In this document: positions 572 to 44,724 of the stretch, piece by piece
Position numbering within the stretch: position 1 is the stretch's first letter
How the letters are laid out: the number at the start of each line of letters is the position of its first letter
Origin: Candidatus Moraniibacteriota bacterium
Lineage (GTDB): Bacteria > Patescibacteriota > Minisyncoccia > Moranbacterales > GCA-2747515
Direction of reading: 5' to 3'
DNA length: 64,000 bases
NCBI GenBank assembly: GCA_942490825.1
Contig: CALNYG010000005.1
Location: forward strand, 6,240 to 70,239
Made by a program: the position numbers and the translations under genes
Notes under the pieces: generated by a model
What the model was told of the DNA's origin: nothing
The model's database searches: none
The model's input: the letters and a program-made list of their open reading frames with translations, nothing else

Positions 572-807
572 ATGTCATTCCGGAAAATATATTTTCTTTT
601 GTAGAAGCGTCGATTTATCGCGTTTTATAGATAGAAAATAATTTATCCGGAATCTAGGAAACTTTAAGATTAATAATAAATTTAAAGCTTGGTTATTATC
701 TAATGGTTTCTAGATACCTGATAGACGAATTTAAATCAATTGCTACGCCTTGCACCATACGGTACAGGACTACGCTCTTGAATAAATTCTATCTTCCAGC
801 ATGACAA
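572..807. repeat. Nested-palindrome intergenic element (ATGTCAT...ATGACA family), long variant
   Basis: ATGTCAT, then a long hairpin (TTCCGGAAAATATATTTTCT...AGAAAATAATTTATCCGGAA), then ATCTAGG. An AT-rich centre containing aactttaag follows. Then CTAGAT, a second hairpin (GATAGACGAATTTA...TAAATTCTATC), and CATGACA. Confidence 0.75.
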
Positions 808-857
808 ACATATAATCATCTTAAATTTTAATTCACAAAAAATTACAAAATAAAAAA

Positions 858-885
858 GACAGTAAATAACCTACTGTCTTTTTTT
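858..885. terminator. Bidirectional hairpin terminator
   Basis: gacagta / tactgtc stem flanked by an A-run upstream and a T-run downstream. Confidence 0.5.
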
Positions 886-1047
886 GATCTTTCGATCTAA
901 CACCGTTCTATTTAATTATTCTATCTAATAAATTTTTATTATCCAAATCTTTTTATTTTTTATTTTGTTAAATTTAAATAATATAAATTTAAATAAGTAA
1001 ATATAATTGGCATTATTATGTTTTTTATACACAATCTAACTAAGCAA

Positions 1048-1248
1048 TTAAATTAAGCCTATCAAATTGAAAAGTGACATAGCCATCGCTGGCACTAAAG
1101 CCAATAGAATTGCAAAATGAAATTCTTCATTACTACCCATTGTTTGAGATTTTTTTTCTTTAGTTTCTCCTTCTTCTGATGGCTTATTGTCATCTTCTGG
1201 ATTACAACAACCTCCACACTTAGGACAAACTTTTGTTTCTTCTAACAT
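1048..1248 (-). CDS. Small Cys-rich protein with C-terminal membrane anchor (hypothetical)
   Basis: 66-aa ORF with an ATG start. It has a CPKCGGCC motif, an acidic/lysine-rich linker and a hydrophobic tail FHFAILLALVPAMAMSLFNLIGLI. Confidence 0.5.
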   Translation of the reverse strand: MLEETKVCPKCGGCCNPEDDNKPSEEGETKEKKSQTMGSNEEFHFAILLALVPAMAMSLFNLIGLI

Positions 1249-1423
1249 ATGTTTTTGTTTCTATTTAATTAATCAAATTTTTTCAGAGATAAGCTTTTTA
1301 TTCAACATATTTCAAATCTATTTCAATTGACTTGTCATTCCCGTCTTACTTACCCGTCGGCAAACAAAGCGAAAACTTTTTTTAAAAAACCAAAACAGAT
1401 CCTAGATAAGTCTACTTAAAAAA

Positions 1424-1509
1424 CAAAAAATCGGAACCGTCCCATGGACGATCACCCGATCTTTAACTCATCACCCTTATAGTATATCACTGAATTAAGT
1501 TCTTGTCAA
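1424..1509 (-). promoter_or_regulatory. Consensus-like promoter plus a ~50-nt hairpin-terminated leader or small RNA
   Basis: On the minus strand, TTGACA (1509-1504) is followed by a 17-nt spacer and TATACT (1486-1481). Next comes the nested hairpin ATCGG-GTGAT-CGTCC-ATG-GGACG-GTT-CCGAT (1460-1430), followed by T6. Confidence 0.4.
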
Positions 1510-1617
1510 CTTAGCTTAATCACGCTATTATTAATTTAATAAACTTATTGAAAATATTTGGCTTAAATAAGCCATTTTCAGGAATAATTAGAAAAATAAT
1601 TTTGTTAAAAAATCTCA

Positions 1618-3102
1618 ATGAACAAACTAGACATGAATAAATTTAAAATACCTAAAGAAGTTACTGAAATAATAAGTAAATTACAAAAAAATAATTTTGA
1701 AGCTTTTGTGGTTGGTGGCTGTGTACGTGACCTAATGACTGATCGTGAACCTAAAGACTGGGACATGACTACAAACGCAAAGCCAGAAGAAATTCAAGAA
1801 ATATTTCCTGACAGTTTCTATGAAAACAATTTTGGAACAGTTGGGATAAAAGTAGATCCTTTTTTAAAAACTGGTAAAGAGGATCGTGAGCACGATGTGA
1901 TTGAAGCAACTACTTATCGAATAGAAACAACTTATTCTGACCGTCGTCGACCTGATGAGATTGAATTTGCTGAGACTTTGGAGGAAGATCTTTCTCGTCG
2001 TGACTTTACTATGAATGCTTTAGCGTTATCTGTGCAAAATGATGAAATTGAATTAACTGATTTATTTGATGGAAAAAAAGATATTGAAAATAAATTAATT
2101 AAAGCTGTTGGAAATGCCAATAAAAGATTTAATGAAGATGCTTTACGAATGATGCGAGCTATCCGATTTGCTGCAGAATTAGGATTTGAAATTGAAGAAA
2201 AAACTTTTCAAGCCATTCAAAAAAATAATGATTTAATTAAACTTATTTCTATTGAAAGAATAAAGGATGAATTTTCAAAAATTATTCTCAGTGAGCATCC
2301 AAAACATGGAGTTGAATTACTTCAAGAAACTGGATTATTGAAATATATTGTTCCTGAATTAGAAACTGGAATTAATGTTAAGCAAAATCATCATCACATT
2401 TACACAGTTTGGGAACATAATTTGAGAGCGTTAGAAAGTTGTCCAAATGAAAACTTATCCGTTCGTTTAGCTGCTCTCTTTCATGATATTGGAAAACCTG
2501 AAGCGAAAAGAATAAAGAGTGGAGCGGCTACTTTTTATAATCATGAACATATTAGTGCTTACATGACAAAAAAGATTTTAAAAAGATTACACTTTTCAAA
2601 TGCAATTATTGAGAAAACAACATTATTAGTTAAAAATCACATGTTCTACTATAGCGTTGGAGAAGTTACTGAAGCAGCAGTTCGAAGAATTATAAAAAAA
2701 GTTGGCTTGGAAAATATGAGAGATTTGATTGACTTACGGATTGGAGATCGTCTTGGTTCTGGTGTACCGAAAGCAAAACCTTACAAGTTACGTCATTTTG
2801 AATATTTGGTGGAGAAAGTTTCAACTGATCCTGTTAGTGTTAAGATGCTAAAATTGAATGGTGACATAATGATCAAAGAAATGAATTTTAAACCAGGTCC
2901 TAAAATTGGTGCCATTTTGGAAATTTTATTGGCTGAAACTATTGATGATCCTGAAAAGAATACGTTAGAATATCTTTCTGAACGTGCTGAAAGTTTACGA
3001 AATGAAGATGTTGATCAGTTAAAAAGTATTGCAAAGAAATATATTAAAGAAAAACAACAGGTTGATAAACAGGAGATAAAGAAAAAGTATTGGGTGAAAT
3101 AG
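1618..3102 (+). CDS. cca: CCA-adding tRNA nucleotidyltransferase (PolyA-pol family head plus HD domain)
   Basis: 494 aa. N-terminal GGCVRDLMTDREPKDWDMTT and RRDFTMNALA nucleotidyltransferase motifs. The HD-domain region contains LFHDIGKP. Confidence 0.85.
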   Translation: MNKLDMNKFKIPKEVTEIISKLQKNNFEAFVVGGCVRDLMTDREPKDWDMTTNAKPEEIQEIFPDSFYENNFGTVGIKVDPFLKTGKEDREHDVIEATTYRIETTYSDRRRPDEIEFAETLEEDLSRRDFTMNALALSVQNDEIELTDLFDGKKDIENKLIKAVGNANKRFNEDALRMMRAIRFAAELGFEIEEKTFQAIQKNNDLIKLISIERIKDEFSKIILSEHPKHGVELLQETGLLKYIVPELETGINVKQNHHHIYTVWEHNLRALESCPNENLSVRLAALFHDIGKPEAKRIKSGAATFYNHEHISAYMTKKILKRLHFSNAIIEKTTLLVKNHMFYYSVGEVTEAAVRRIIKKVGLENMRDLIDLRIGDRLGSGVPKAKPYKLRHFEYLVEKVSTDPVSVKMLKLNGDIMIKEMNFKPGPKIGAILEILLAETIDDPEKNTLEYLSERAESLRNEDVDQLKSIAKKYIKEKQQVDKQEIKKKYWVK

Positions 3103-3107
3103 GAAGT

Positions 3108-3281
3108 ATGTCATCCTCGCGAAGGCGGGGATCCAGGTGTGTAGAACTTTAAGCTTTTTTATAAACTAAAATTTATTTACAAACTTTAAATTTAATTTTC
3201 CTGGATTACCGACAAATTTTTTACAAAAATTTTCGAGAATGATATTAACAAAAAATGGTGAAAAGCCCGTGCGGCGAGCAC
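3108..3281. repeat. Nested-palindrome element joined to a reverse-complement 17-mer copy
   Basis: ATGTCAT-CCTCGC-gaag-GCGGGG-ATCCAGG ... CCTGGAT ... AATGATAT, then gcccgtgcggcgagcac at 3265-3281. Confidence 0.8.
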
Positions 3282-3312
3282 AAAAAAAATTTAAAATTAA
3301 TTAATAAAATAT

Positions 3313-3609
3313 ATGAAATTTAAAATTGAAAATGTTCGATCTAATCCGACTACTCTTTTACGCAGAGCTGGTTATACTTTTCAGCATAAATTGGATAATG
3401 GTGAGATGAGCTTTGTTCGTCCGATGGCTCGGGGTGGTTATCCTCGTTTTCATATGTATGTTAGGGTTGATGGTGTGAATATGGAGATTAGTTTTCATCT
3501 TGATCAGAAAAGGCATACTTATGGTGATGAGACTCGGCATCATGGGGAGTATGAGGAGAGTGGTGCTCTTGAGGAGGAGGCTGGGAGGTTGAAGATGTTT
3601 TTGAGATAA
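3313..3609 (+). CDS. Hypothetical protein with atypical G/T-ending codon usage
   Basis: 98-aa ORF with an ATG start. It uses 9 GAG versus 1 GAA, plus AGG/CGG/GGG/GTG codons, unlike neighbouring genes. No family recognised. Confidence 0.55.
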   Translation: MKFKIENVRSNPTTLLRRAGYTFQHKLDNGEMSFVRPMARGGYPRFHMYVRVDGVNMEISFHLDQKRHTYGDETRHHGEYEESGALEEEAGRLKMFLR

Positions 3610-3681
3610 AAAATAAGTCTTTACATTAAAGCTATTATCTTATAAACTTGAATAATACTAATTTAAATTTAATCAAAAAAT

Positions 3682-4461
3682 ATGAACTTTTTAATAATTA
3701 TTTTTTCAATAGGTTTTGTTTTCAGCGTATTAACTGGTGGTCTTTTTCTGAACTTTATATTGAAAATTTTAAAATTGGAAAAATTCAAGTATAAAAAATC
3801 TGTTTTATTTGTTTTTATCTACATATTTTTTTCATTTATTTTATATATAACCTTCAGCTTATTTATAAAATCAGAAATAATTCTATTTATAATATCCTTA
3901 ATCTTGGGATTTATTGTTTTTTATTATCTACTAAAAAGATATTTAGATTTAAACTGGAAAAAATCACTTAAAGTATATGCTCTTTATAATTTATTTAATT
4001 TAGCATTATTTATAATGCTCATAATTGTTGTATTTTTTGTTAGATTAAACATGTATGAACCATTTGTTTTAAGAGGTGCTAGCATGGAGCCAACTTACAA
4101 AAACAATGACTATCTTATAATAAATAAAATTGATAAAGATTTTAAAAGAAATGATGTTGTAGTCTATGAAAATAAAGATAATTTTTTAGTTTCCAGAATA
4201 ATAGGATTGCCAAATGATAAAATAGAAATAAAAGATGGAAAAGTATTTTTAAATGAAAATATTTTAAATGAAGATTTTATAAACATAGAAACTAAAGGCA
4301 AATTTTATTTAACGCTTAAAGAAAATGAGTATTTTGTCTTAGGAGACAATAGAAATAAAAGTCTTGACTCTAGAAGCCTTGGTCCAATAAACAAAGACAG
4401 TATTCGAGGAAAAATATTTTACGAAAACTCAGAATTAATGAATTTAAAAAGCGGTAACTAA
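3682..4461 (+). CDS. lepB: Signal peptidase I homolog with a multi-TM N-terminal extension; the box D lysine is replaced by serine
   Basis: GASMEPTY (box B serine), NDVVVY (box C), LVSRIIGLPNDKI (box D, normally KR(I/V)IGLPGD) and GDNRNKSLDSR (box E). Confidence 0.8.
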   Translation: MNFLIIIFSIGFVFSVLTGGLFLNFILKILKLEKFKYKKSVLFVFIYIFFSFILYITFSLFIKSEIILFIISLILGFIVFYYLLKRYLDLNWKKSLKVYALYNLFNLALFIMLIIVVFFVRLNMYEPFVLRGASMEPTYKNNDYLIINKIDKDFKRNDVVVYENKDNFLVSRIIGLPNDKIEIKDGKVFLNENILNEDFINIETKGKFYLTLKENEYFVLGDNRNKSLDSRSLGPINKDSIRGKIFYENSELMNLKSGN

Positions 4462-4472
4462 ACCGCTTTTTT
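4446..4472 (+). terminator. Intrinsic terminator overlapping the lepB stop
   Basis: gcggt (4451-4455) / accgc (4462-4466) followed by T6. Confidence 0.55.
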
Positions 4473-4495
4473 AATTTCAAAATTTTTCAAAAACT

Positions 4496-4906
4496 TTATT
4501 TATTCAATTTAGCTAAAATAAATCCAGCCACAAATCCATTAACTGTTCCCATAATACCCCAACTCAAAATCATAACAAAAGGCAAATTAAAACTACTAAA
4601 ATTAATCAAAAATGTAGGCAAAACTAAAACAAGAAAATAAATAGTTCCAAAATTAATACCCTTTTTCAAAATACTTCCTGTAAATAATTGTTTTACCTTA
4701 TCCCAAATCCAAGCCAAGCCAAAGCCTAATATGATTGGATACAAAAAGAATAACATCATAATAGGATCATCCCAAGGTCTGAAAACATCTGCCATATAAG
4801 CGTTTTTCAAAACCGGAAAAACCGCACTCAATGCTTGATTTAACAGCATATTCACAATGCCCATCACAATACCTGTAATTAAACCTGTCCAAAATATTTT
4901 TTTCAT
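4496..4906 (-). CDS. Integral membrane protein (hypothetical)
   Basis: 136 aa with about four hydrophobic segments. No family recognised. Confidence 0.55.
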   Translation of the reverse strand: MKKIFWTGLITGIVMGIVNMLLNQALSAVFPVLKNAYMADVFRPWDDPIMMLFFLYPIILGFGLAWIWDKVKQLFTGSILKKGINFGTIYFLVLVLPTFLINFSSFNLPFVMILSWGIMGTVNGFVAGFILAKLNK

Positions 4907-4961
4907 TTTTTCATTTTTTAACTAATTATACTTTTATTATAAACTATTCTTTAATAAAAAC

Positions 4962-4992
4962 AAAAAGTCGCTAGAAAAACCAGCGACTTTTT
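4962..4992 (-). terminator. Terminator after typA (bidirectional hairpin)
   Basis: agtcgct / agcgact stem flanked by an A-run and a T-run. Confidence 0.6.
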
Positions 4993-5014
4993 AAATTCAA
5001 AATTGTCCAAGAAC

Positions 5015-6793: not shown

Positions 6794-6825
6794 ATTTTTT
6801 TAAATTAAAAGCTTTGATTAATATT

Positions 6826-6842
6826 GTGCTCGCCGCACGGGC
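6826..6842 (+). repeat. GC-rich 17-mer, copy 3
   Basis: Exact GTGCTCGCCGCACGGGC, 33 nt upstream of the typA start on the opposite strand. Confidence 0.9.
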
Positions 6843-7025
6843 TTTTAGACTATATATTTTGATTTTGTACAAATAAATTCTTTAAAAAATATTGCTAGTT
6901 TTAAAAAAGTTATATTTTAAAAATCAAAATTTGTCTAAAAAATTAAACATAAATAAAAAACCGCAACACCTGCGATTTATTTATAATAGCTTAAAGGCTA
7001 AAGAAAGTCAATCGTTTTTGGCTCT

Positions 7026-9530: not shown

Positions 9531-11069
9531 ATGAAAATAGAAAATAAAATACAATTAATAACTTATCCAGATAGTTTGGGTAAAAATTTAAAAGATTTAG
9601 ATTACGTTTTAGGTAAATATTTAAAAGATGCAATTGGTGGTGTACATTTATTACCTTATTATCCTTCATCAGGAGATAGGGGTTTTGCACCTTTGACGCA
9701 TAAAGAGGTTTCTCCAGAATTTGGAACTTGGGAAGATGTAAAAAAAATCTCATCTAAATATACTCTAATGAGTGATTTAATGGTAAATCATGTTTCTTCT
9801 AAATCTGAGTATGTTCAAGATTATTTAGAAAAAGGATCAAAGTCAAAATATGCAGAATTTTTTGTAACGAGTGAAAAATTTTCTCGGAGATTTTTACCGC
9901 ATAGAAAAAGTACCTCACCTTTATTAAAAAAAATTGAAACTTTTATAAACAATCTGAGACGTTGGGACAAAATTTTCCATATTGAAGGTATAAATAGATT
10001 CGATGCTAAAAAACTTTATCGACCACGACCGAAGAGTCCATTGAAACCATTTGTCTTTACAGATGGCAATATTAAACATTTGTGGTGTTCTTTTACAAAA
10101 GATCAAGTAGATTTAGATGTGATGAATCCAGATGTCAAAAGACTTTTAGTTGAATATATTGAAACTTTAGCAAAAAATGGAACAAAAATTTTACGAGTTG
10201 ATGCGGCAGGTTATACGGTAAAGAAAAGAGGGACGAGTAGCTTTATGATTCCAGAAACATATAGATTCATTAGTTGGTTAGGTGAAATTGCACATAAAAA
10301 TGATATTTCAATGTTATTAGAAATTCATGGACATTACAAACAACAAATTAAACTAGCAGAAACTGAAAATGTTGATTATGTTTACGACTTCCAAATTCCA
10401 CTTTTAGCAATTCACGCTATTTATAATAAAAGAACCGACTTAATTAAAAAGTGGATTGAAGTTCGCCCGAATAATGCAATCGTTGTTTTTGACACACACG
10501 ATGGCTTGCCCGTTGTTGATTTAGAAGAATTGCTTTCGGAGGTAGAGCTGAATAAATTAAAAAGTGATATTCTAAAACATGGCGGAAATGAAGCTCTTCG
10601 TGCTTCAGGTTCTAATTCCAAAAATGTCGATACATATCAAATAAATTGTACATATTATTCTGCTTTAGATGAAAATGATGATTCTTATATTGTAACGCGA
10701 GCGATTCAAATTTTTCTTCCAGGCATTCCGCAAATTTATTATGATGGTTTGTTGGCGGGCGTAAATGATGTTGCAAAATTAAATAAAACTGGAATTGGAA
10801 GAGATATTTTAAGACGAGATTATGATTTAAAAATGATTGAAAAAGCTTTTGAAAAAGGAGTTGTTAAAAGATTATTAAAGTTAATGAAGTTTCGAAATAA
10901 TCATCTAGCATTTAATGGTAAATTTTCTTTGTTAGATTCTTCTCATTCCACATTGAAAATGCGTTGGGAAAATGGTGCTGATTTTTGTGAGGCTGATATT
11001 GATTTAAAAAAATATAAAGTTGAGATTCATTATTCAACCGAAGAAGGGAGAATAATTGAAGTTTTATAG
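9531..11069 (+). CDS. Sucrose phosphorylase-type GH13 glucosyl phosphorylase
   Basis: 512 aa. The N-terminus QLITYPDSLG...LPYYPSSGDRGFAPLTHKEVSPEFGTWEDV...DLMVNHVS and the RVDAAGY and HD regions match the sucrose phosphorylase subfamily. Confidence 0.8.
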   Translation: MKIENKIQLITYPDSLGKNLKDLDYVLGKYLKDAIGGVHLLPYYPSSGDRGFAPLTHKEVSPEFGTWEDVKKISSKYTLMSDLMVNHVSSKSEYVQDYLEKGSKSKYAEFFVTSEKFSRRFLPHRKSTSPLLKKIETFINNLRRWDKIFHIEGINRFDAKKLYRPRPKSPLKPFVFTDGNIKHLWCSFTKDQVDLDVMNPDVKRLLVEYIETLAKNGTKILRVDAAGYTVKKRGTSSFMIPETYRFISWLGEIAHKNDISMLLEIHGHYKQQIKLAETENVDYVYDFQIPLLAIHAIYNKRTDLIKKWIEVRPNNAIVVFDTHDGLPVVDLEELLSEVELNKLKSDILKHGGNEALRASGSNSKNVDTYQINCTYYSALDENDDSYIVTRAIQIFLPGIPQIYYDGLLAGVNDVAKLNKTGIGRDILRRDYDLKMIEKAFEKGVVKRLLKLMKFRNNHLAFNGKFSLLDSSHSTLKMRWENGADFCEADIDLKKYKVEIHYSTEEGRIIEVL

Positions 11070-17048: not shown

Positions 17049-18639
17049 ATTCCCAAGGTTTATTATATCTTCCTAAAAATTTATGTCCTCGATTCTCTAG
17101 TTCAATTGCGGCTAGCTTTGCATCAAAACAATTTACATAACCATCACAAACAGTAACAACTTCACTGTTAGCTGGTATTTGTGAAAAAGCCTTTTCTATT
17201 TCAATACTAGGTGTGTGCATAATTGGAATATTAAAACTACCTTCAATATGACTTTTTTCAAATTTGAATGGCTCTCGACTATCTACTAAAATTTTACCTT
17301 CATTTACTTTCTGTTTAATTTCACTTGTTGTAAAAACTTTTTTATATTTTTCATCATCATACTTTTCTACAAAATCAATATTACCATTCCAGCTACCACC
17401 AAAATCAACCCATCCGCTAGCACCATTCTCTAGATAAAATGAAACGATCTTTTTTGTTCGTAAAAACTCCGTCACTTCTTTTCCTCTAATTCCTGACCAA
17501 CAAAGTACATAAACATATTTATCTTTTGGCACTTCTATCCACCTCCCCGCTTTCAAATCTGCAAAACGAATATGAACACTATCATTAAAATGACCATTTT
17601 CGTACTCAATATTTTCTCTAGCATCTAAAATTATATAATCGTCTCTGCCACCATTCGTAATATTTTTAAAATCTTGATTGGTAATCATTATATTTCTTTC
17701 TTTATTAACATTAAAAAAAGAATATTCTTGATCAATCACTTTTTCACTAGAAGACATATCAATTTTTTTCTCTTTAATCAAGCCTTCAGTTAAAATTTTA
17801 ACTTCAGATTTTTCTATTTTAACGGGAGCATCATTTTGAATTTTTAATGTCATAAGTACACCATATCGAGTAAATTTATCACCTTCATGTAAAGTTAACT
17901 CAATAGATGATTTTTCATTGTCTATTCGAACTAATTTATTTAATGTAATTTTATCTACACTTTCATACCAATTTTGAAAAGTGCTAAAATCAACACTTTG
18001 CTTAGACATGCTATAAGCTTCTTGCAAATTTTGTATAGCAATATTTTTATAATACTTATTAATAAAATTTGATACTAAGTCATCACTTTCAATTTTTGAA
18101 ACAAATTTCTCAGAAGATATGTCAATATTTATATTTTCATTATCTCCAATATTTAATTTATCATTTTTGTCCAATGATATCTCATATTGATAAGCCTCTA
18201 ATTCTTCATCATTAAATTTTTCTAAATTTTCATCAGATTCACTATCTATAAATATCTCATGTTTTTTACTCTCCTCAAGCCATTTTTCATATTCTCCTTT
18301 CTGTTTATTATGTGCATAAAGATATGAAATTATTAAAGAAATAATGATGATAAAAACAAATATTACAGAGATTGTTATTTTTGGATACTTCAATAAATAA
18401 AATTTCTGTTTAAAAAACTGATACATCGCTCCAAAAAATGCAATAAAAAACATTGCAATAATTGAAAAAAATTGAGCAACCTGAGCACCTATACTAAATA
18501 TAAAATCTGGTGGAATCACCGCGTTAGTTATTTTTGTGTTAAAAATGAAAAAGATGATACAAAAATATAGTAGTATTCCTTTAATCTTTGTATTTTTTGT
18601 TTTTTTGTTTATGATTCTTTTTTTGAATATATTTGGCAT
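17038..18639 (-). CDS. Membrane protein with tandem C-terminal rhodanese domains
   Basis: N-terminal TM segments are followed by two rhodanese-like modules (ILDARENIEYENGHF...LCWSGIRG and LVDSREPFKFEKSHIEGSFNIP...VCDGYVNC). The ATG is at 18639, and the ORF stays open to a TTG at 18663. It overlaps the downstream gene by 11 nt. Confidence 0.7.
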   Translation of the reverse strand: MPNIFKKRIINKKTKNTKIKGILLYFCIIFFIFNTKITNAVIPPDFIFSIGAQVAQFFSIIAMFFIAFFGAMYQFFKQKFYLLKYPKITISVIFVFIIIISLIISYLYAHNKQKGEYEKWLEESKKHEIFIDSESDENLEKFNDEELEAYQYEISLDKNDKLNIGDNENINIDISSEKFVSKIESDDLVSNFINKYYKNIAIQNLQEAYSMSKQSVDFSTFQNWYESVDKITLNKLVRIDNEKSSIELTLHEGDKFTRYGVLMTLKIQNDAPVKIEKSEVKILTEGLIKEKKIDMSSSEKVIDQEYSFFNVNKERNIMITNQDFKNITNGGRDDYIILDARENIEYENGHFNDSVHIRFADLKAGRWIEVPKDKYVYVLCWSGIRGKEVTEFLRTKKIVSFYLENGASGWVDFGGSWNGNIDFVEKYDDEKYKKVFTTSEIKQKVNEGKILVDSREPFKFEKSHIEGSFNIPIMHTPSIEIEKAFSQIPANSEVVTVCDGYVNCFDAKLAAIELENRGHKFLGRYNKPWEYEK

Positions 18640-18930: not shown

Positions 18931-19047
18931 ATTCTACATCCAACACAAAATTAAATAAAGCGTTTTAAAAAATTACAAGATAGTTATAATGCTATTTTCA
19001 TCAAATTTTCCTAAAATGTCAATTCTAAAAAGACAAATAAAAGAAAA

Positions 19048-22203
<3,156 letters not shown>

Positions 22204-22629
22204 TCTTTCTTCTACTTGAATTAAAAAAGAATTGACAATTAAGAAAAACTTGATTGCATTTCAATTTCTAATTACGTTATTTTATATTTTTAGATAAATG
22301 AATGAAAATTGCATTATTATACCAAAACTAATCAACTACTCTTATTCTTAAAATAAAGTATAAGAGGTTTTTTAGTAATGGTATTACCTATCTTGTAAAT
22401 TATACTCGAAAATATTTTCCGCAGAAATAAATCTTGAATAAATTCTGTATAACTTACTAACAAATTTTTAAAGTTCGTAATTGTGCGGAAATAATTATTT
22501 TAAATTATTTAAAATAATTATTTACTCACAATTTTTAAGGCAATAAAAAAACAAGGACTTAGCCACTATCCTAGTTTAACTGCTTTTTCTACGAAAGTCA
22601 AATTGAATCTCTCTCAAAGCAATATTACT

Positions 22630-26698: not shown

Positions 26699-26715
26699 GT
26701 GCTCGCCGCACGGGC
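26699..26715 (+). repeat. GC-rich 17-mer, copy 4
   Basis: Exact GTGCTCGCCGCACGGGC followed by TTTTT, 23 nt after the stop of the DHH gene. Confidence 0.9.
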
Positions 26716-26756
26716 TTTTTACCATTTAACATTTTTCGAAATTCCAAAACTTACCT

Positions 26757-27044
26757 GTCATTCTGAACGTATTAAATTTATCGCAGATAAATTTATGAAG
26801 TGAAGAATCCCCTACAGAGAATCACAAAACCCTAAGTCATGTCATCCTTAAAAATTATTTTGTAATGAAATGGAAAAATAATTTATCCCCCAGGGGATCT
26901 TCTCTTGCTACGCAATTCACCTTGATTCAGGATCTCAGATTAAAGTTAAATTGAAAGCTTATCGCTAATCTTAAAGTTTCTTAGATTCCGGATAATTTTT
27001 TAAATTTTTCTGCAAAAAACCTAAAAAATTTCCGGAATGACATG
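26757..27044. repeat. Composite of nested-palindrome modules (one half module plus a full element in reverse orientation)
   Basis: It starts with TGTCAT-TCTGAACGT...GAAGTGAAGA-ATCC. A full element then runs from CATGTCATCC at 26838 to TTCCGGAATGACATG at 27044. Its reverse complement shares CATGTCATTCCGGAAA...TTATCCGGAATCTA(A/G)GAAACTTTAAGATTA with the element at 572. Confidence 0.7.
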
Positions 27045-27179
27045 TCTAAATAATCTCGAAAAATCTAATCATCTAATTGTCTAATAATCTACCTGTTTAG
27101 CCATATTGACGCTTTCTTTTTATTTTGGTAATCTTATACTTGTAAGGTTATTTGAAAATTTATTTATTATTTCAGAAAT

Positions 27180-27273: not shown

Positions 27274-27378
27274 TGTCATTTCGACTGGAGAGTAGCGGAA
27301 CGGAGAAATCTCAAAACTTTCAGAAAATCCTAAAAATTGGAATCTCTTGGTTTAGTTAAAATTAAGTTTGGAATGATA
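27274..27378. repeat. Short nested-palindrome family member between two tRNAs
   Basis: TGTCAT-TTCGACTGGAGAGTAGCGGAACGGAGAA-ATCTC...aaacttt...GAATGATA. Confidence 0.55.
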
Positions 27379-31643: not shown

Positions 31644-31697
31644 AATAATAGATTATTAGATATTTAGATTATTAGAATGATAAATTTTATACTAATC

Positions 31698-31834
31698 ATG
31701 TCATCCCCGCGTAGGCGGGGATCTAGGTACGTAAAAATTTAAGTTATATTATAAGTTAAATTTTATTTGCAAACTATTAGTTCAATTCTCCTGGATTCCC
31801 TTCCCTTTCGCTACGCTCCAGCCGGGAATAACAT
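31698..31834. repeat. 137-nt nested-palindrome element (canonical form)
   Basis: ATGTCAT-CCCCGC-gtag-GCGGGG-ATCTAGG, a 75-nt AT-rich centre, then CCTGGAT-TCCC...GGGA-ATAACAT. Confidence 0.85.
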
Positions 31835-31850: not shown

Positions 31851-33582
31851 CTACATTCTCTCAACCGTCTCAATTCCCAGTAAATTCAAGCCATTTTTTA
31901 ATGTCACAGCCACTGTTTTAGTCAAAGCTAAATTATATTTATAATCATTATTTTCTTCATCAAGAATTCTTGTTTTAGCATAGAATGAATTAAACTCTGA
32001 AGCTAATTCATACAAAAAAACTGCGATATAATGAGAAGAATATTCTTGCAAAGACTGTTCAACCACTTCTGGAAAAGTAGCCAGAATTTTTTCTATTTTA
32101 GAAACCTTACCATTTTTCGATTCCTCATCGAAATCAAAACTTTCAATTTCACTTTTTCTTAAAATTGAACTACATCTCACAAAAGTATATTGCAAATACG
32201 GTCCGGAATTTCCTTCAAAATTAATTGATTTTTCTTCATCGTAAATAATGTCTTTCCCTGCTGTTACTTTTAAAATTGAATATTTAATTGCTCCAATTGC
32301 TACTTTTTTTGCTACTTCTAACTTTTCTTTTTCGTCTGTAATTTCTTCTCCCATTTTATCGGAGATAACTTGTGCTGTTTTTTCAACCCAATCTTTAGCT
32401 CTGACAATATCTCCTGTTCGAGAAGACATTTTTCCTGTCGCCAATCTTAAAGTTCCGTGTGATAAGTGAACAGTTTTTTCTTCCCATTCTTTATTTATAA
32501 ATCCAGCTGCTTTTTTTACCACTTCAAAGTATTGTTTCTGTTCATCACTAGTTACAGTCAATGAAATATCTGGATTATATTTTTCCCATTTTTTTGCAAA
32601 TAATCCGATATCTTTCGCTTCGTAAGTTGGCAATCCTTCTGAATTAATAAAAACTCGATCATGTAAACCATATTTACTTCCGGGAAAAATAATTGCCCCT
32701 TGAGATTTTTCGAAAACCTTTCCGATATTTTCTCTAACTAATTCCTCTCCCTCTTCAAAAGTAGAACTTTCTAAAAAATAATGATCAAACTCAGAACCTA
32801 ATAATTTATAAATTTCATCGAAATATTCTAAACTCCACTTTTTCCCTAAATCATAAATTTCATTTTGTTCTTTGTCTTCACCAGTATAAACTAACTTATT
32901 TATTTTCGTAATTTCTTTTTTAATGTCATCATTTTCCGAAAAATTCTTTTCTCCAAAAGCATAACATTTTCCTAAAAAAGCTTGCTTGTCCCACACAGAA
33001 CTTTCATCTGACGGCATTTCTTCTGTAATGTTTTTTATTCCCCATAATGTTTTTGATACGTGCATTCCAACATCTCCTTGAAAAGTAACTTGTTTTGCGT
33101 CCGCTCCGGAAAACTGTGCAATTCTAAAAAGTGACTCGCCGATAGTATTTGTCATCACATGCCCGATGTGAAATTCTTTAAATAAATTTGGATCGGTATG
33201 TTCTGCTAAAAACATTTTATTTTTTAAGGAATCATTACTTCCCCAAGTTTCTTCATTTTTTAGAATGTTTTGTAATAAATTTGCGAAGTATTTTTTTGTA
33301 AAACTAAAATTAACGTAACCTCCGACTGCTTCAACTTTTGAGAATAATTCTTTGGTTTGCTGGTTTGAATTTAATTCTTCGGCTAATTCTTCGGCAATTT
33401 GTATTGGTGATTTTCGTAATTCTTTGGCTAATTGAAAAGATAAATTGGTTGTCCAGTCTCCATGGTCTAAGCTTTTTGGTCGTTCTAGAATTATTTTTGA
33501 AATTTGAAAATTACTCCAAGTTTCTTTTTCCTGAAGGTTTTTTTGCTGATTGTTTTATTAAATTGGTTATTTCTTTTTGCAT
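31851..33582 (-). CDS. argS: Arginyl-tRNA synthetase, reading frame interrupted at an A7 run near the 5' end
   Basis: HIGH motif (FHIGHVM) and KMSS(R) motif. The N-terminal domain sequence (ILERPKSLDHGDWTTNLSFQLAKELRKSP) is in frame with the body, but that frame has no start codon. The ATG at 33582 (MQKEITNLIKQSAKK) is in the +1-shifted frame. The frames meet at T7/A7 33538-33544. Confidence 0.85.
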
Positions 33583-33605
33583 AATGTTTTTATAAAATTA
33601 TCTTT

Positions 33606-34026: not shown

Positions 34027-34143
34027 AAAGTAGAGAACGGTTTTAAGCCATTCCCTACTTTCTCATACGCCGGAAGTAGTGTGTCGTAGACCACTGCTTT
34101 CGTAACGTTTCGAAACGGGTGGTTTATGACACACCCATTCCGG
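34027..34143 (-). other. GC-enriched structured intergenic element: long hairpin containing a GTCAT-hairpin module, followed by a terminator
   Basis: CCGGAAGTAGTGTGTC (34070...) pairs with GACACACCCATTCCGG (...34143). The inner pairing is ACCAC/GTGGT around the palindrome CGTTTCGAAACG. On the minus strand a second hairpin (34061-34027) is followed by ATTTTTT. Confidence 0.5.
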
Positions 34144-34970: not shown

Positions 34971-34987
34971 GCCCGTGCGGCGAGCAC
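34971..34987 (-). repeat. GC-rich 17-mer, copy 5 (reverse complement on the plus strand)
   Basis: gcccgtgcggcgagcac, lying between two co-directional minus-strand genes. Confidence 0.9.
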
Positions 34988-37611: not shown

Positions 37612-37751
37612 AAATAAAAAGTTTATTTAATTATATTTTTATTCTACCAAAAATAAAAACTCTTGAATAGAAAAAAGTTTTAACACTACTAATTTATTAT
37701 TTTCTATACTATAATATTAAGTATTATAATTATAAAATAAAAAATAAATTC

Positions 37752-39071: not shown

Positions 39072-39148
39072 GTTGCATAAATTATTTGATGTGATATGTT
39101 TAATTAAGTGTTTTAATAAATATTTTTAATAATTAAAAAAATAAGGTT

Positions 39149-39844: not shown

Positions 39845-39849
39845 AATCT

Positions 39850-40314
39850 ATGAAAGAATTAAAAATAAATAAAGGAATTTTATTTTGTGCATTTGTAACG
39901 TTTCTTGCTAGTTTTATGCCCTGGATAGTTTCATCTTACTCTACAATTGTTGTCAATGGAGTAATGATTCAAGGAAATTGGAATGGTGGTTGGTATGGTC
40001 CAGCATTATTTTCTAGTATAGCTGCATTATTATTTATTATTTTATGGCTATTACCTAAGTTTAATGTTGACTTAAAAAATATTGAGGAAAGCTATTTCTT
40101 AATTCAAAAGATTTTATCTACCTTGATGGTAGTTGGTCCAATTCTATGGTTCATTGGTTCTCAAAATAATATTTTTTATTTAGGAGTTGGTTTCTATGTT
40201 ACAGTTATTTCAGGTATTATTGCAGTACTTTTTTCATTCACTCAGAAGGAACCAACCACCTCTACTATAAGCTCAGGTGATAATAATCAAGAAAGTGATT
40301 CAAGTAAGAATTAA
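39850..40314 (+). CDS. Integral membrane protein (hypothetical)
   Basis: 154 aa with four hydrophobic segments. It lies 5 nt after the lipoprotein gene. Confidence 0.55.
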   Translation: MKELKINKGILFCAFVTFLASFMPWIVSSYSTIVVNGVMIQGNWNGGWYGPALFSSIAALLFIILWLLPKFNVDLKNIEESYFLIQKILSTLMVVGPILWFIGSQNNIFYLGVGFYVTVISGIIAVLFSFTQKEPTTSTISSGDNNQESDSSKN

Positions 40315-40341
40315 GTTTTACTTACAATTTTCTTGCTACAT

Positions 40342-40377
40342 AAAAGTCTTTTGAATTTTTTATTCAAAAGACTTTTT
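40342..40377. terminator. Bidirectional terminator between convergent genes
   Basis: aaaagtcttttgaa / ttcaaaagactttt, a perfect 14-bp stem. Confidence 0.65.
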
Positions 40378-40518
40378 AATTATTATAAAAATAAATATTA
40401 TTAAATAAAAAAAGCAGATAATAAAAATCATCTACTTTTTCTAAAAAATCTATTTTCTTTTAATTCCAATTTTATTAAAAATAACAACCCTTACATAATA
40501 ACTTTAGCTATAAAAATT

Positions 40519-41178
40519 CTATTCAATTAAACCATCTTTTAAATTTATTCTACGAGAAGCAAAGCTAGCTGTGTAATCATCATGAGTAACTAAAATAATT
40601 GTCTTTCCAGAATCATTAAGTTCTTTAAATATACTCATGACTTCCTTGCCCGACTTACTATCTAAATTTCCAGTTGGCTCATCGGCTAAAATAATCTCTG
40701 GATCATTAATAAGTGCTCGAGCAATTGCAACTCTCTGCTTTTGTCCGCCAGAAAGTTCATTGGGACGATGATCAAATCTTTCCCCCAATCCAATTTTTTT
40801 TAAAATTTCTTTAGCTTTAAAAATATCTTCATTTCCTGCATAAAAACTGGGCAAAGAAACATTTTCTAAAACAGTTAAATCAGGAATAAGATTAAAACTT
40901 TGAAACACAAATCCTAAATATTTATTTCTAACTATTGCTAATTCATCTTCACTAAGTTTTGCAACATTGTCATTATTTAAAAAATAATCACCTTTTTCAG
41001 GAGTATCTAAACAACCCAAAACATTTAATAAAGTTGTTTTACCTGATCCAGATGGACCCATTAAAACAATAAACTCACCTTTTTTGATTTCAACATCTAC
41101 ACCTTTAATAATTGGTACAAAAACTTTACCCAGTTGATAACCTTTGTGTACTTCCTTAAGTGAAATGATATTTTCCAT
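40519..41178 (-). CDS. ABC transporter ATP-binding protein (MacB/LolD type)
   Basis: Walker A GPSGSGKTT, signature LSGGQKQR, Walker B ILADEPTGNLD. Confidence 0.9.
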   Translation of the reverse strand: MENIISLKEVHKGYQLGKVFVPIIKGVDVEIKKGEFIVLMGPSGSGKTTLLNVLGCLDTPEKGDYFLNNDNVAKLSEDELAIVRNKYLGFVFQSFNLIPDLTVLENVSLPSFYAGNEDIFKAKEILKKIGLGERFDHRPNELSGGQKQRVAIARALINDPEIILADEPTGNLDSKSGKEVMSIFKELNDSGKTIILVTHDDYTASFASRRINLKDGLIE

Positions 41179-41184
41179 AAAAAA

Positions 41185-42375
41185 TTATTTTACAATAATT
41201 ACTTCTTCTCCGACTTTTAATCCAGATTTTATTTCCACTTTTTTTAAATTAGTAAATCCAGTTGTTACTTCCCTATTTTCCAGTCCATTTTCAGTTTTAA
41301 CAATTACTATTTTTTTACCGTCTTTACTGCGAACTGCCTCGCTAGAAATAACTAGAACGTCTTTAACTTCTCCTGATACTAAATCGGCAGTTCCTGACAT
41401 GTCACTTAAAAACTTTTTATCTGATTCATTAATAGAAATGATTACTTTATAACTAGCTAGATCATTAGCGTCTAACTCAGCCACAGGAGAAACAAAAATA
41501 ACTTGTCCTTCAAACTTTTGCTCAGGATAAGCGTCTAATTCAATATACGTTTTCATTTCTGGTTCTATTTGTAAAGCCTCCATATCTTCAACATAAGACT
41601 CAAACCAAAAACTCTCCGGATCAACTAAAACAATAAATGAATCACCGGATACTTTATCTCCACCAACAACACTTCCAATTGTTCCATTAATTTGAGCTAC
41701 TATAACATTATCAACTGGGGAAGTTATTTCGTATTTATCATATGCCTCTTGAGATGCAGCATAGGAGGATTGACTTTTTTCAAGTTGATATTTAGAATTT
41801 TGATAACTTTCTTCAATTTGCTCAAGTTGTTTTTTAGAATTTTTTATGTCAGCTTCAGCAGAATCTTTTTTAATTTTCTGAGAAAGAGCTTGTGAAGAAT
41901 CTTTTCCGTATAATTCAACATATTTATCATATAAGTCATCTTCATTATCTTTTTTTTCTTTAGCCGCTTTATATGTATCTTTTTTAATTTTATAATCAAC
42001 ACCTTCTTTTGAAAGTCTTTCGGAATTTAATACGCTTGATTCTAAATCAGCTCTTGATTGTGCTACCCTATTATCTTCAGAACTAGAATCGGAACTAGCT
42101 AAAACCTTATTTTTATTTACTTTATCACCTAATTTTACATAAATATTATTTACAGTTCCCGGATTAAGAAATTCCATTTTCCATGTATCAAAAATAATAC
42201 TACCGTCAACGGATATCGCTGTTTGGATGTCACCTTTGACAACTTTTTCTGTATCATATTCTAACTCTGAAGAAGTATCTTTTTTGAAAAAAATAAAATA
42301 AATTCCAATAATAAAAATTAATATTCCCAATGTATAAAATATTTTTTTCTTATGTTTTTTAATTATTGCTTTCAT
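41185..42375 (-). CDS. Periplasmic adaptor (membrane fusion protein, HlyD/MacA type)
   Basis: N-terminal TM, a long coiled-coil region, and a beta-barrel C-terminal part. It is adjacent to the ABC ATPase. Confidence 0.75.
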   Translation of the reverse strand: MKAIIKKHKKKIFYTLGILIFIIGIYFIFFKKDTSSELEYDTEKVVKGDIQTAISVDGSIIFDTWKMEFLNPGTVNNIYVKLGDKVNKNKVLASSDSSSEDNRVAQSRADLESSVLNSERLSKEGVDYKIKKDTYKAAKEKKDNEDDLYDKYVELYGKDSSQALSQKIKKDSAEADIKNSKKQLEQIEESYQNSKYQLEKSQSSYAASQEAYDKYEITSPVDNVIVAQINGTIGSVVGGDKVSGDSFIVLVDPESFWFESYVEDMEALQIEPEMKTYIELDAYPEQKFEGQVIFVSPVAELDANDLASYKVIISINESDKKFLSDMSGTADLVSGEVKDVLVISSEAVRSKDGKKIVIVKTENGLENREVTTGFTNLKKVEIKSGLKVGEEVIIVK

Positions 42376-42458
42376 TATTTATTTTATTAAAAATGATTTA
42401 AATGTTTTATTTTAATACTTGTTTATTTTTTAAAATTTAATTATAAAATTTTATTAAA

Positions 42459-42935
42459 TTAAATTCCTTTAATTTTTATAGTCTCAATATTATCTCCACT
42501 TTTCCAAACAGAAATATAAGCTCCTTTTTTCAATTCTTCAAAACTAGCTTTCATCACATTTCCTGAACCATCGCCAGTTCCTTTAATAATTAATGTTCCT
42601 ACTGGTATTTCCATAGAAATGTCCTTTGTCTGAATATTTTCTTTTTCTTCTGTTTTTAGAGCTTGTCTTTCTTCCTGAGTCATATTCTGACGTTCTTCCT
42701 TTTTCTCAGCTTGTTCTTCTTCAGAAAGAATATCTAGTCCTATTTCATTTTTAATAACTATCTTATTTCCATCTGTTAAAGAAATTATTCCATTAAGATC
42801 TGCCGGACGACTTGGTGTAACAACTTCTGACTCTTCACTTAAAAGATCTGTTAATTGATCTGATTCTGATTTTTCACCACACCCAGAAAAAATGATGATA
42901 CTACTTAAAACAAAAAACATCATTAATATTTTCAT
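42459..42935 (-). CDS. Lipoprotein (hypothetical)
   Basis: Lipobox FSGC. 158 aa. Confidence 0.55.
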   Translation of the reverse strand: MKILMMFFVLSSIIIFSGCGEKSESDQLTDLLSEESEVVTPSRPADLNGIISLTDGNKIVIKNEIGLDILSEEEQAEKKEERQNMTQEERQALKTEEKENIQTKDISMEIPVGTLIIKGTGDGSGNVMKASFEELKKGAYISVWKSGDNIETIKIKGI

Positions 42936-43061
42936 ATTTTTATTTAAAAAAATTATTTAATTAAACTAACTCATTTCACCTAATGCTATTATATTACATA
43001 GTACGTTTTAATTCAAAAAATATTTCATTTTATAAAAAATAAATTTAAATATTTTATCAAA

Positions 43062-44282
43062 CTATTCGTATCTCAACGTATCAATTGGTTTCAATTTAGA
43101 AGCTTGGACTGATGGATAGTATCCGAAAAAAACTCCAATTGCAACGGTAAAAAAAATAGAGAGTAAATAACTCCACCAAATAAAAATAATGTCCAGACCA
43201 TAAATCTTCAATATATAAAAAATTCCTGTGGCTAAAAATAATCCGACTCCCGCACCAAAAATACTTAAAATAACTGATTCTAATAAAAATTGTAACATAA
43301 TATAAAGTTTTTTAGCACCAATAGCTTTACGAATTCCAATTTCCTTAGTTCTCTCTTTAACGATAATATGCATTACATTCATAATTCCAATTCCTCCCAC
43401 TAAAAGAACAATAAATCCGACACTTCCTAAAAGTAATGACATCGTTCTGGCACTATCTTTAGCTGATTGAACATTTGCACCCATATCTCGTAAACGAAAA
43501 TCTTCAGGAACTCCCGGACGAATACCATGTTCTTTACGTAAAATTTGCCCTGCATCATTCATAGCTAAATCAATCACATTAACGCTCGTGGCTTCCAAAT
43601 TTAAATTAAATTTTCCACTTTTTCCCAACGCATATCTATATGAAGATGAATATGGCATAATCACACTTTCATCAATTGATATTGGACCTATAGAACCTCC
43701 CTTGTATTTTGCTACACCTATAATTTCAAATTGTTTTTTACCAATTCTAATTGATTCACCAATAACATCAGCATCTCTGGTGCCATATAATTCCTCAACA
43801 ACAGTCGCTCCTAAAACAGCGACTTTCAAATGATCATCTTCTTCTTCTTGATTGAAAAATCTACCTGATTCAAGTTCTAGGCTAACGATTTCTTTAACTT
43901 CAGGAAAACTTCCGAGAATCCCAGACTGAAATAAATTATCATTATTACTAACTTGTACTTTACCTGTTAACTGAGGAACTGCTCGTGAAATATTTTCACT
44001 CTCAAGCAAACTATCAATATCATCAGAACTTAATTTCGATTTTTGTCCTTCCGATGTTGAAGGAGCATTTACAAAAATAGTAGTTACGCTCATATTAGAA
44101 TATTGTTCTTCAATTTTAGAACTGGCTCCGGCACCCATTTCAATTACTAAAACAATAGTAGCTGCTCCAATAATAATACCCAGAGATGTTAAGAAGGATC
44201 GAGCCTTATTTTTATGTAAACTTCTCCAAGCTAGTTTTAAAGTTCCTTTTTGTATATAAAATGATTTATTCTTTTTATTCAT
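43062..44282 (-). CDS. ABC transporter permease (MacB/FtsX family)
   Basis: 406 aa with a MacB_PCD-like periplasmic domain and a C-terminal FtsX 3-TM module ending PIDTLRYE. Confidence 0.85.
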   Translation of the reverse strand: MNKKNKSFYIQKGTLKLAWRSLHKNKARSFLTSLGIIIGAATIVLVIEMGAGASSKIEEQYSNMSVTTIFVNAPSTSEGQKSKLSSDDIDSLLESENISRAVPQLTGKVQVSNNDNLFQSGILGSFPEVKEIVSLELESGRFFNQEEEDDHLKVAVLGATVVEELYGTRDADVIGESIRIGKKQFEIIGVAKYKGGSIGPISIDESVIMPYSSSYRYALGKSGKFNLNLEATSVNVIDLAMNDAGQILRKEHGIRPGVPEDFRLRDMGANVQSAKDSARTMSLLLGSVGFIVLLVGGIGIMNVMHIIVKERTKEIGIRKAIGAKKLYIMLQFLLESVILSIFGAGVGLFLATGIFYILKIYGLDIIFIWWSYLLSIFFTVAIGVFFGYYPSVQASKLKPIDTLRYE

Positions 44283-44314
44283 TATTTTATTTTTTAGAAT
44301 TTAACATTAGATAC

Positions 44315-44557
44315 CTATTTATTCTTTACTTTTATTCTATCAAAAATAATCGCCATTGGACAATAACCAGTCAAAGAAAAATTCATAAACATCACCCCCA
44401 CAAAAATCGTAAAATAAATAAATTTAATATTAACTTTCAAAGCTAAAACAGCCGAAATAAAAATAAAAAATCCACCCACTAAATAAACCATTCTTTCAAT
44501 ATACCAATGATCAGTTTTAATTCGATAAAGTTTTTTATCTTTAAATTCTTTTTGCAT
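44315..44557 (-). CDS. DUF2892-type small membrane protein
   Basis: 80 aa. ERMVYLVGG followed by two TM helices, as in YgaP-C-like proteins. Confidence 0.55.
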   Translation of the reverse strand: MQKEFKDKKLYRIKTDHWYIERMVYLVGGFFIFISAVLALKVNIKFIYFTIFVGVMFMNFSLTGYCPMAIIFDRIKVKNK

Positions 44558-44587
44558 ATTTTTTAAGTTTAAAAAATTATTCCTAGT

Positions 44588-44724
44588 ATGTTATCCCCGC
44601 GTAGGCGGGGATCCAGAAACATAAAATTATAAGTTAAATTATAAACTAAAGTTATTTTGTAGACTTAAAATTTAGTTATCCTGGACTCCCTTCCACTTCA
44701 TTTCGTTACGTCCGGGAAAGACAT
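44588..44724. repeat. 137-nt nested-palindrome element (canonical form)
   Basis: ATGTTAT-CCCCGC-gtag-GCGGGG-ATCCAG, AT-rich centre, then CCTGGA-CTCCC...GGGA-AAGACAT. It has the same length and architecture as the element at 31698-31834. Confidence 0.85.

Follow-up and report, generated by a model that had tools for sequence, protein, structure and literature searches.

What are the nested palindromes scattered through the intergenic DNA of this 64,000-nucleotide stretch (hereafter the window) of contig CALNYG010000005.1, from the Candidatus Moraniibacteriota bacterium assembly GCA_942490825.1? An initial annotation made from the letters alone had described them as a modular family of hairpin-ended repeats placed at gene ends, a description that stands, and had left their nature to be decided between a miniature inverted-repeat transposable element (MITE), a structured RNA and a protein-binding site. 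It had also stated that no function was assigned to such elements, which has to be amended, as their hairpin arm corresponds to the CGTC-tagged repetitive extragenic palindromes (REPs) (PMC3733652) and to the NTS/SRM target of Ssn nucleases (PMC11893778). The best current answer is a protein-recognised single-stranded DNA (ssDNA) hairpin acting as a non-autonomous mobile or mosaic element. The identity of the elements with this known family is firm, and the explanation as a whole, inverted dimers of CGTC-tagged REP hairpins, the NTS/SRM motif of the Ssn system, is given a probability of about 75%, with the Ssn-driven mechanism proposed below rated lower. The repeat family has been known since 2013 and its protein partner since 2025; what is new is the host, a Moranbacteria member of the Candidate Phyla Radiation (CPR), together with variants that have long loops or mixed arms and the record of turnover at individual sites.

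The CGTC-tagged REPs, family CGTC-1 included, were defined by Di Nocera, De Gregorio and Rocco in 2013 (BMC Genomics 14:522; PMC3733652) by a CGTC tag, often TGTC and also CCTC, a stem of 8-9 bp nearly always beginning with AT, a loop of 4-5 nt and a tail approximating CCA. They were found predominantly as inverted dimers with spacers of 20-100 bp near the 3′ ends of open reading frames (ORFs), were reported in five phyla, were equated with the Neisseria dRS3 and the Rickettsia RPE-4/RPE-6 repeats, and were described as "apparently lacking a dedicated transposase" (PMC3733652). Chenal et al. in 2025 (Nat Commun 16:2388; PMC11893778) renamed an extended dRS3 as NTS, CGTCATTCCCGCGMAVGCGGGAATCYRG, and generalised it to the SRM pattern, HGTCWYN(0-2)YYVSBRHN(0-5)WNVSBRGN(0-2)RNCYNB. 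In the same study, SsnA, a 94-aa single-domain GIY-YIG protein, bound and cut NTS only as ssDNA, on the tag-bearing strand only and a few nt upstream, and reduced transformation by NTS-bearing DNA in N. meningitidis, and ssn genes were frequently flanked by the motif in a layout resembling that of insertion sequences (ISs) (PMC11893778).

In the window, an arm was taken as a TGTC tag (once TGTT), a stem starting with AT, a loop, a return stem ending in AT and a C-Y-A tail, and a dimer as two such arms in inverted orientation, with the tags outward and an AT-rich spacer between them. The resulting inventory comprised five dimers (A1, A2, A3, B1 and B2), one lone arm and one degenerate dimer, with about seven clearly hairpin-forming arms per 64 kb. 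A1 (3108-3250, plus strand) consists of a canonical left arm at 3109-3136, reading TGTC-ATCCTCGC-GAAG-GCGGGGAT-CCAG, a 63-nt AT-rich spacer and a long-stem right arm at 3200-3246; it begins 5 nt past the stop codon of the CCA-adding enzyme gene, with an inverted 17-mer after it at 3265-3281. A2 (31698-31834, plus strand), placed between argS and a GT4 glycosyltransferase gene, both on the minus strand, presents a canonical left arm at 31699-31726, a 63-nt spacer and a right arm at 31790-31834 with an ATTCCC/GGGAAT stem and a 21-nt loop. A3 (44588-44724, plus strand) has the same plan, with a left arm tagged TGTT at 44589-44616, a 63-nt spacer and a right arm at 44680-44724, and lies within an efflux operon, with an RND permease gene on one side and an 80-aa ORF on the other. 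The three left arms share the consensus TGTC-ATCCYCGC-GNAG-GCGGGGAT-CYAG, and A1-A3 proved to be whole-element copies, with a mean column identity of 81% and an identical spacer length; the right arms of A2 and A3 combine a short basal stem with a loop of 21-23 nt, and that of A1 is a long AT stem.

The type A left arms agree with CGTC-1 in tag, 8-bp AT stem (ATCCCCGC/GCGGGGAT), 4-nt loop (GAAG or GTAG) and CCA/CTA tail, and the dimers agree with it in their inverted arrangement, conserved spacer and intergenic position near ORF 3′ ends. Two changes separate the A left arm from NTS, a compensated pair (T:A to C:G) and a tag that opens with T instead of C, to which A1 adds a T-G position in its stem. 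A1 and A2 fit the SRM search pattern, which matched twice in the window (3109-3136 and 31699-31726) against 0.015 matches expected per dinucleotide shuffle, and the A3 left arm missed it by one base only (GTT for GTC). A stricter detector, which required GTC, a perfect arm that begins with AT and is 6 nt or longer, a loop of at most 80 nt, a return arm and a C, returned five window sites against 1.0 expected. Moreover, the whole elements folded better than shuffled sequences as DNA (z −3.5, −3.7, −3.4, −4.5 and −3.1).

The same arm was found far beyond this lineage. The 24-mer GTYATCCYCGCGNAGGCGGGGATC occurred at a minimum of 120 genome loci in a species-representative genome collection and, among the matches listed, its hosts included Alpha-, Beta-, Gamma- and Deltaproteobacteria, Planctomycetes, Bacteroidota, Chloroflexi, Gemmatimonas, Omnitrophota, Cloacimonadota and Fibrobacter, as well as four CPR genomes (Gracilibacteria, Moraniibacteriota, Wolfebacteria and an unclassified Patescibacteria), in DNA of 37-74% GC. 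A perfect palindromic inverted partner was located 11-350 nt away in 70 of the 146 listed matches, with a median spacer of about 40 nt, and a partner at up to six mismatches, with pairing not required, in 87 of them. Covariation was assessed on 66 distinct partner arms from other phyla, collected without a pairing requirement: the 8-bp stem was paired in 97.3% of cells, and double-sided changes were present in six of the eight stem pairs, which none of 500 shuffles matched and no slid register approached. At the third stem pair, for example, U-A was counted 31 times, C-G 24, G-C four times and A-U once. Therefore, the hairpin is under selection. This result also supports the reading, made in the initial annotation, of the CCTCGC, CCCCGC and TCCGGA stem variants as compensated changes, for which three window copies alone were insufficient.

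A covariance model trained solely on these 66 foreign arms recognised the left arms of A1 (42.9 bits, E 3.7e-10), A2 (41.7 bits) and A3 (41.2 bits), the three E values spanning 4e-10 to 1e-9, and no other window site scored under E 0.4. A hairpin of 75% GC, nearly identical to the proteobacterial consensus, is kept inside a genome of 29% GC, which points either to strong constraint from outside, for instance by a conserved protein that binds it, or to recent transfer. A slightly broadened pattern, also covering the ATTCCC stem, matched at least 120 viral or proviral contigs of IMG/VR, where the canonical arm GTYATYCCCGCGNAGGCGGGRATC was present, among the matches listed, on viral contigs, some with arrays of 5-13 copies; phages and prophages are a possible route by which the motif was spread between phyla.

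A separate feature of the arms in other phyla was the presence of tandem "stutter" copies, one to three in number and with a period of 18-22 nt, preceding 28 of the 146 canonical arms. Their unit is a flank of 4-8 nt plus GTCATCCCCGC(G), corresponding to the 5′ half of the hairpin, and downstream copies were seen in 0 of 146. The accounts of the motif cited here offer no explanation for these copies, which nicking at the hairpin, or slippage during its replication, could have left behind.

The remaining elements of the window follow the same plan more loosely. B1 (572-807, plus strand) has a left arm at 573-658, reading TGTC-ATTCCGGA-61-nt structured loop-TCCGGAAT-CTAGG, a spacer containing AACTTTAAG and, as its right arm, a long imperfect hairpin at 710-806. 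B2 lies on the minus strand (27044-26839), with a left arm at 27042-26980, reading TGTC-ATTCCGGA-38 nt-TCCGGAAT-CTAAG, and a right arm at 26839-26905 that contains the stripped hairpin ATCCCC-CA-GGGGAT. The type B left arm can be summarised as TGTC-ATTCCGGA-(61 or 38 nt, self-paired)-TCCGGAAT-CTARG followed by AAACTTTAAGATTA, and this arm and the word ATCTARGAAACTTTAAGATTA are common to B1 and B2. The lone arm (26756-26812, plus strand; fold z −2.2) reads TGTC-ATTCT...AGAAT-CCC around an inner 10-bp AT hairpin and is placed about 40 nt beyond a 17-mer copy at 26699-26715. The degenerate dimer, or D-type (27274-27378, plus strand), is located between tRNA-Cys and tRNA-Leu and shows a left arm TGTC-ATTTC...GAAAT-CTC and a right end ...GGAATGATA. 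Regarding genomic setting, A1, A2 and A3 lie 5-40 nt past stop codons, B1 and the lone arm come after a 17-mer, and the D-type is found between tRNA genes.

All arms can be set against the published family. TGTC or TGTT precedes the stem in all left arms, in the lone arm and, among the seven right or partner arms, in four; TATC is read instead in the right arms of A1 and of the D-type. The tails (CCA, CTA, CCA, CTA and CTA) fit the CCA consensus, and the five inverted dimers fit the published arrangement, including, in A1-A3, its conserved spacer length. The stem reaches 8 bp in the A left arms and in the B left arms (ATTCCGGA/TCCGGAAT), and only 5-6 bp in the A2 and A3 right arms and in the D arm; the 4-5-nt loop is that of the three A left arms, the other loops measuring 21-61 nt and often folding on themselves. 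Consequently, partner arms as well as types B and D exceed the loop range or undercut the stem range of CGTC-1, from which the window also differs in its host, a member of Patescibacteria at 29% GC outside the five phyla of that study, and in that each dimer joins two unlike arms. The density of about seven clear arms per 64 kb likewise contrasts with the hundreds of NTS per genome in Neisseria. The arm grammar matches that of Rickettsia RPE-4/RPE-6 and Wolbachia CGTC-4 according to the descriptions by Di Nocera et al., and these repeats also share the setting of an AT-rich, reduced genome of a host-dependent bacterium. Unlike the RPEs, no in-frame insertion into a protein gene was found in the window, the sole intragenic candidate (42679-42734) folding as expected by chance.

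The inventory coincides in large part with the earlier one. The members at 572-807, 3108-3250, 31698-31834 and 44588-44724 read as described, the last two both being 137 nt in length. The composite described at 26757-27044 is real and resolves into the lone arm and the minus-strand dimer B2. The member at 27274-27378 folds no better than shuffles (z +1.8) and is retained as D-type because a 78%-identical homologue exists at a different locus of a relative, L128. Two additional matches of a structural detector, 42679-42734 (coding, fold z −0.7) and 40969-40989, look like chance and were rejected as members. Some of the finer features assigned to the family were less general than proposed. The outer 7-bp pairing is exact in B2 only, where it extends to 8 bp (CATGTCAT/ATGACATG), holds in six of seven positions in A1 and A2 and is weaker in A3 (one wobble and one mismatch), and the central word said to occur often, AACTTTAAG, is present in three of the five dimers. 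Furthermore, the outer ATGTCAT/ATGACAT and inner ATCCAGG/CCTGGAT pairings are not distinct features; they result automatically from inverting two tag-to-tail arms. The cloverleaf, or four-way, shape is the minimum-energy fold of B1 and B2 only, retained by the centroid in B1 only; in DNA folding, A1 forms a single long hairpin, and A2 and A3 form separate local hairpins.

The comparison with relatives revealed how unstable these elements are. Two of them, L121 and L128, are syntenic with the window at 87-89% protein identity, and may not be one organism. Filled, empty and swapped sites were found between them and the window, which is the insertion polymorphism that had been proposed as a check. 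The site after the CCA-adding enzyme gene, occupied in the window by A1 and the 17-mer, carries in L121 a different dimer with GTCATTGCGAGG.../...GCAATGAC arms, which folds as one 128-nt hairpin (z −9.8) and whose GTCATTGCGAGG... arm may resemble the rickettsial RPEs. After EF-P, where the window has B1, L121 has no B1 and other DNA that includes a 101-aa ORF. The spacer between the RND permease gene and the 80-aa ORF measures 206 nt with A3 in the window and 62 nt without A3 in L128. The argS-GT4 spacer, which contains A2 in the window, has the same outer ends and different arms in L128, one without a GC hairpin and the other of the long type seen in B1. The spacer between MacB and a 158-aa ORF, empty in the window (42936-43061), harbours in L128 a clean 159-nt insertion, the D-type homologue, which is bordered by a separate outer inverted repeat, TAGATYTCTTAAAAACC, and shows TA at either junction. 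In more distant relatives (71-74% identity), no dimer was present after the CCA gene. Given these presences, absences and swaps at orthologous sites, the turnover of the elements, by gain, loss and remodelling, is rapid.

Two sequences previously listed as fragments of the family were rejected as members. The one at 1330-1350 is an unstructured tag-like word (z +1.5) kept in place in L121, and it belongs to a non-coding segment upstream of the CCA gene, 1330-1400, that is conserved nearly base for base in L121 at 9703-9775 (GTCATTCCCGTCTTACTTACCCGTCGG..AAACAAAGCGAAAAC), with no predicted structure and no Rfam match. The other, at 34070-34143, is a strong 74-nt hairpin (z −4.8) without the arm grammar, lying between two conserved genes; with the flanks conserved on both sides, L128 presents there (17150-17190) an unrelated perfect 17-bp palindrome, TTCTGTAGAGAACGCAG/CTGCGTTCTCTACAGAA.

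By homology with the Ssn system, the following mechanism is proposed for the dimers. At any ssDNA stage, during replication, repair or DNA uptake, every arm would fold into a hairpin, and in each strand of a dimer exactly one arm, the outer one at the 5′ end, would be readable. The hairpin, together with the following C, would be bound by a small Ssn-family nuclease of the GIY-YIG type, which would nick a few nt 5′ of the tag, that is, just outside either end and once per strand, so that the dimer would lend itself as a unit to excision, copying or recombination. The elements would in this way become hot spots for nicking, recombination, gain and loss, with which the differing arms and empty sites of the relatives are consistent, and would probably spread in the manner of REPINs or NIMEs, as units that are not autonomous. 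Compensatory changes would maintain the hairpin shape while loops and spacers drift towards AT and, owing to their location just past stop codons, the elements may also be transcribed and serve as 3′ hairpins of mRNAs.

Several observations weigh against this proposal. The strict CGTC/SRM geometry is found in the three A left arms only, the other arms having basal stems of 5-6 bp or loops of 21-61 nt and E values above 1 with the foreign-arm model. The L128 insertion reaches 23-29 nt past both tags and ends in an outer inverted repeat of its own, so that the predicted Ssn nick sites do not by themselves delimit the mobile unit. No GIY-YIG ORF was recovered from the 64-kb window by motif scans of six-frame ORFs, by tblastn with two small GIY-YIG proteins or by Pfam on small ORFs, and the window accordingly departs from the neisserial system in having no ssn gene and no NTS-ssn-NTS unit. 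The sole small GIY-YIG family found in Moranbacteria adjoins tRNA-Glu instead of lying between SRM hairpins. To our knowledge, no experiment shows Ssn mobilising anything. As the GIY-YIG gene is linked to tRNA-Glu and none occurs in the window, a cognate Ssn in the lineage is hypothetical, and an Ssn-driven mechanism in Moranbacteria, plausible as it is, would be given slightly less than even odds.

The tRNA-linked family has a constant setting. In all three Moranbacteria loci where it was found (L030 1830-2250, L130 2400-2830 and L136 2400-2830, from members with 36-56% GC), a gene for an 81-aa single-domain GIY-YIG protein has a second copy of the 5′ half of tRNA-Glu(UUC) on one side and the complete tRNA-Glu gene on the other. 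About 200 homologues were recovered, many of the source-named ones from Moranbacteria, Parcubacteria or Patescibacteria, and the arrangement suggests an endonuclease cassette conserved next to a tRNA gene. The L030 copy, located near a dimer in a Moraniibacteriota metagenome-assembled genome (MAG), was rejected as the cognate Ssn, the family being bound to tRNA-Glu and devoid of flanking SRM hairpins; in PDB and NCBIfam, this type showed generic similarity only, to UPF0213 and to group I intron endonucleases. It is conceivable, if rather unlikely, that the Moranbacteria dimers form an active ssDNA-based mobile mosaic system served by an enzyme other than a conventional SRM-flanked ssn product, with arm replacement arising by nick-induced gene conversion and not by classical transposition. 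The 81-aa protein might then be a domesticated Ssn acting in trans, or some other enzyme might move and swap the arms.

An RNA-based explanation, in which the elements would be structured-RNA genes or cis-elements (small RNAs, terminators or 3′ hairpins stabilising mRNAs) and the compensatory changes would reflect selection on RNA structure, draws on their position 5-40 nt past stop codons, on a T-G position of the A1 stem that would be a G-U pair in RNA, and on the argument by Di Nocera et al. that many REPs are transcribed (PMC3733652). It also finds a precedent in FtrB (Rfam RF02748, Francisella sRNA B), a 115-nt small RNA verified by Northern blot, which contains GUCAUUCCCGCGUAGGCGGGAAUCUC, has the same hairpin and a similar AT-rich stretch, UAAGUUAAAU, and demonstrates that stable RNA can be made from elements of this kind. 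However, FtrB is described as Francisella-specific, and A2 alone matches it, at 41.5 bits against a gathering score of 66, A1 and A3 giving no match at E values up to 1. The elements are, moreover, oriented in both ways relative to their flanking genes (A1 is sense to the upstream gene, A2 and A3 are antisense), vary in presence and in arms between close relatives, and have no cloverleaf fold common to the members, and SsnA recognises the motif in ssDNA but not in RNA (PMC11893778). The mixed orientation, the presence/absence variation and an Ssn without RNA binding would make any RNA role a secondary property at most; an RNA by-product, as in FtrB, is possible, and RNA function as the primary explanation appears unlikely.

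Mobilisation by a RAYT, an IS200/IS605-like tyrosine transposase, instead of an Ssn would suit the architecture of the dimers, since REPINs and BIMEs also consist of two inverted hairpin repeats around a spacer, can fold whole as one long hairpin, lack target duplications, are non-autonomous and are thought to act as ssDNA; the analogy was drawn by Chenal et al. themselves (PMC11893778). What separates the two systems is the tag and the enzyme, GTAG and a Y1 HUH transposase in RAYT-linked REPs against (C/T)GTC and, by the present reading, a GIY-YIG nuclease here. The GTAG of A2 and A3 lies in the loop, where A1 has GAAG, and the tag is TGTC. Di Nocera et al. tied no transposase to the CGTC REPs (PMC3733652), and no Y1 transposase was encountered in the window or in the approximately 85 kb of relatives' DNA examined. 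In addition, REPIN populations are usually lineage-specific, in contrast to an arm sequence nearly identical across phyla, and a RAYT origin is accordingly viewed as improbable. The reading as ordinary MITEs, deletion derivatives of DDE ISs moved by a transposase through terminal inverted repeats, seems very improbable in spite of the three ISL3 and two IS256-family copies in the window, the inverted ends, the insertion polymorphism and the TA at both L128 junctions, because a TA is expected by chance in DNA of 29% GC, dimers in other genomes show no consistent target duplication, the ends are self-folding hairpins common to many phyla and not lineage-specific terminal repeats, and the ISL3 ends, GGCTCTTTAACATCTTTGGGCAA, are unrelated to the tags, which rejects ISL3, the IS whose ends were read, as the parent.

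The interpretation of the elements as CGTC-REP/NTS-SRM dimers extends this family to the CPR, whose genomes of about 1 Mb are regarded as poor in repeats; RefSeq-based surveys of the family have probably under-sampled the CPR, as its genomes are mostly MAGs. The same-site differences between close relatives provide a way into how these repeats move, a question left by the published work. In practical terms, the elements explain why Moranbacteria MAGs show spurious small ORFs and intergenic spacers that vary; a literature search with peptide words (IPAFAGMT and similar) yielded no match.

The dimers are also accompanied by other repeats, a likeness to NTS/SRM repeats, which cluster as mosaics beside other repeats. 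The 17-mer mentioned above, GTGCTCGCCGCACGGGC, usually followed by TTTT, occurs at 500-516, 3265-3281 (minus strand), 6826-6842, 26699-26715 and 34971-34987 (minus strand). Besides these five window copies, five were counted in 16 kb of L121, two in L128 and none in the relatives at 71-74% identity; three copies are no more than 60 nt away from hairpin elements, and in two the shared sequence continues for about 45 nt into the flank. A metagenome scan with the 17-mer GTGCTCGCCGCACGGGCTWT gave four matches, all in DNA of 51-68% GC and taken as chance. The 17-mer is a genus-level repeat and not simply a terminator, because its orientation at 3265 does not suit the flanking genes. Just outside the A2 and B2 tags, stretches of about 50 nt rich in TTAGAT/ATCTAA were observed (31650-31697 and 27045-27100), and a tandem array of about ten ATGTCTAA octamers occupies 50515-50625; the dimers may form part of mosaic repeats of larger size.

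Regarding the host genome, both the CCA-adding enzyme and a MacB-type permease had homologues that assign the window to Candidatus Moranbacteria, and the permease was 100% identical to a protein encoded on a 374-kb NCBI contig. The window has a GC content of 29-30% and contains a 23S-5S pair without a 16S gene nearby. The 23S rRNA match (19042-22208, minus strand) spans 3167 nt against a model of 2925 positions, so that the gene carries about 240 nt of insertions, and another relative, L123, encodes a 23S_rRNA_IVP protein beside the CCA-adding enzyme gene. The argS gene next to A2 (31854-33584, minus strand) is in one frame with a 576-aa orthologue from residue 14 onwards, at 88% identity, and its first 13 or so codons (MQKEITNLIKQSAKK...) are in another frame; the switch takes place at an A-run near 33545-33560 and reflects either a frameshift or a homopolymer assembly error. 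Finally, a perfect tandem duplication with a 97-nt unit was located at 54770-54963, at the edge of an IS256-family transposase gene, with an inverted copy at 62766-62882.

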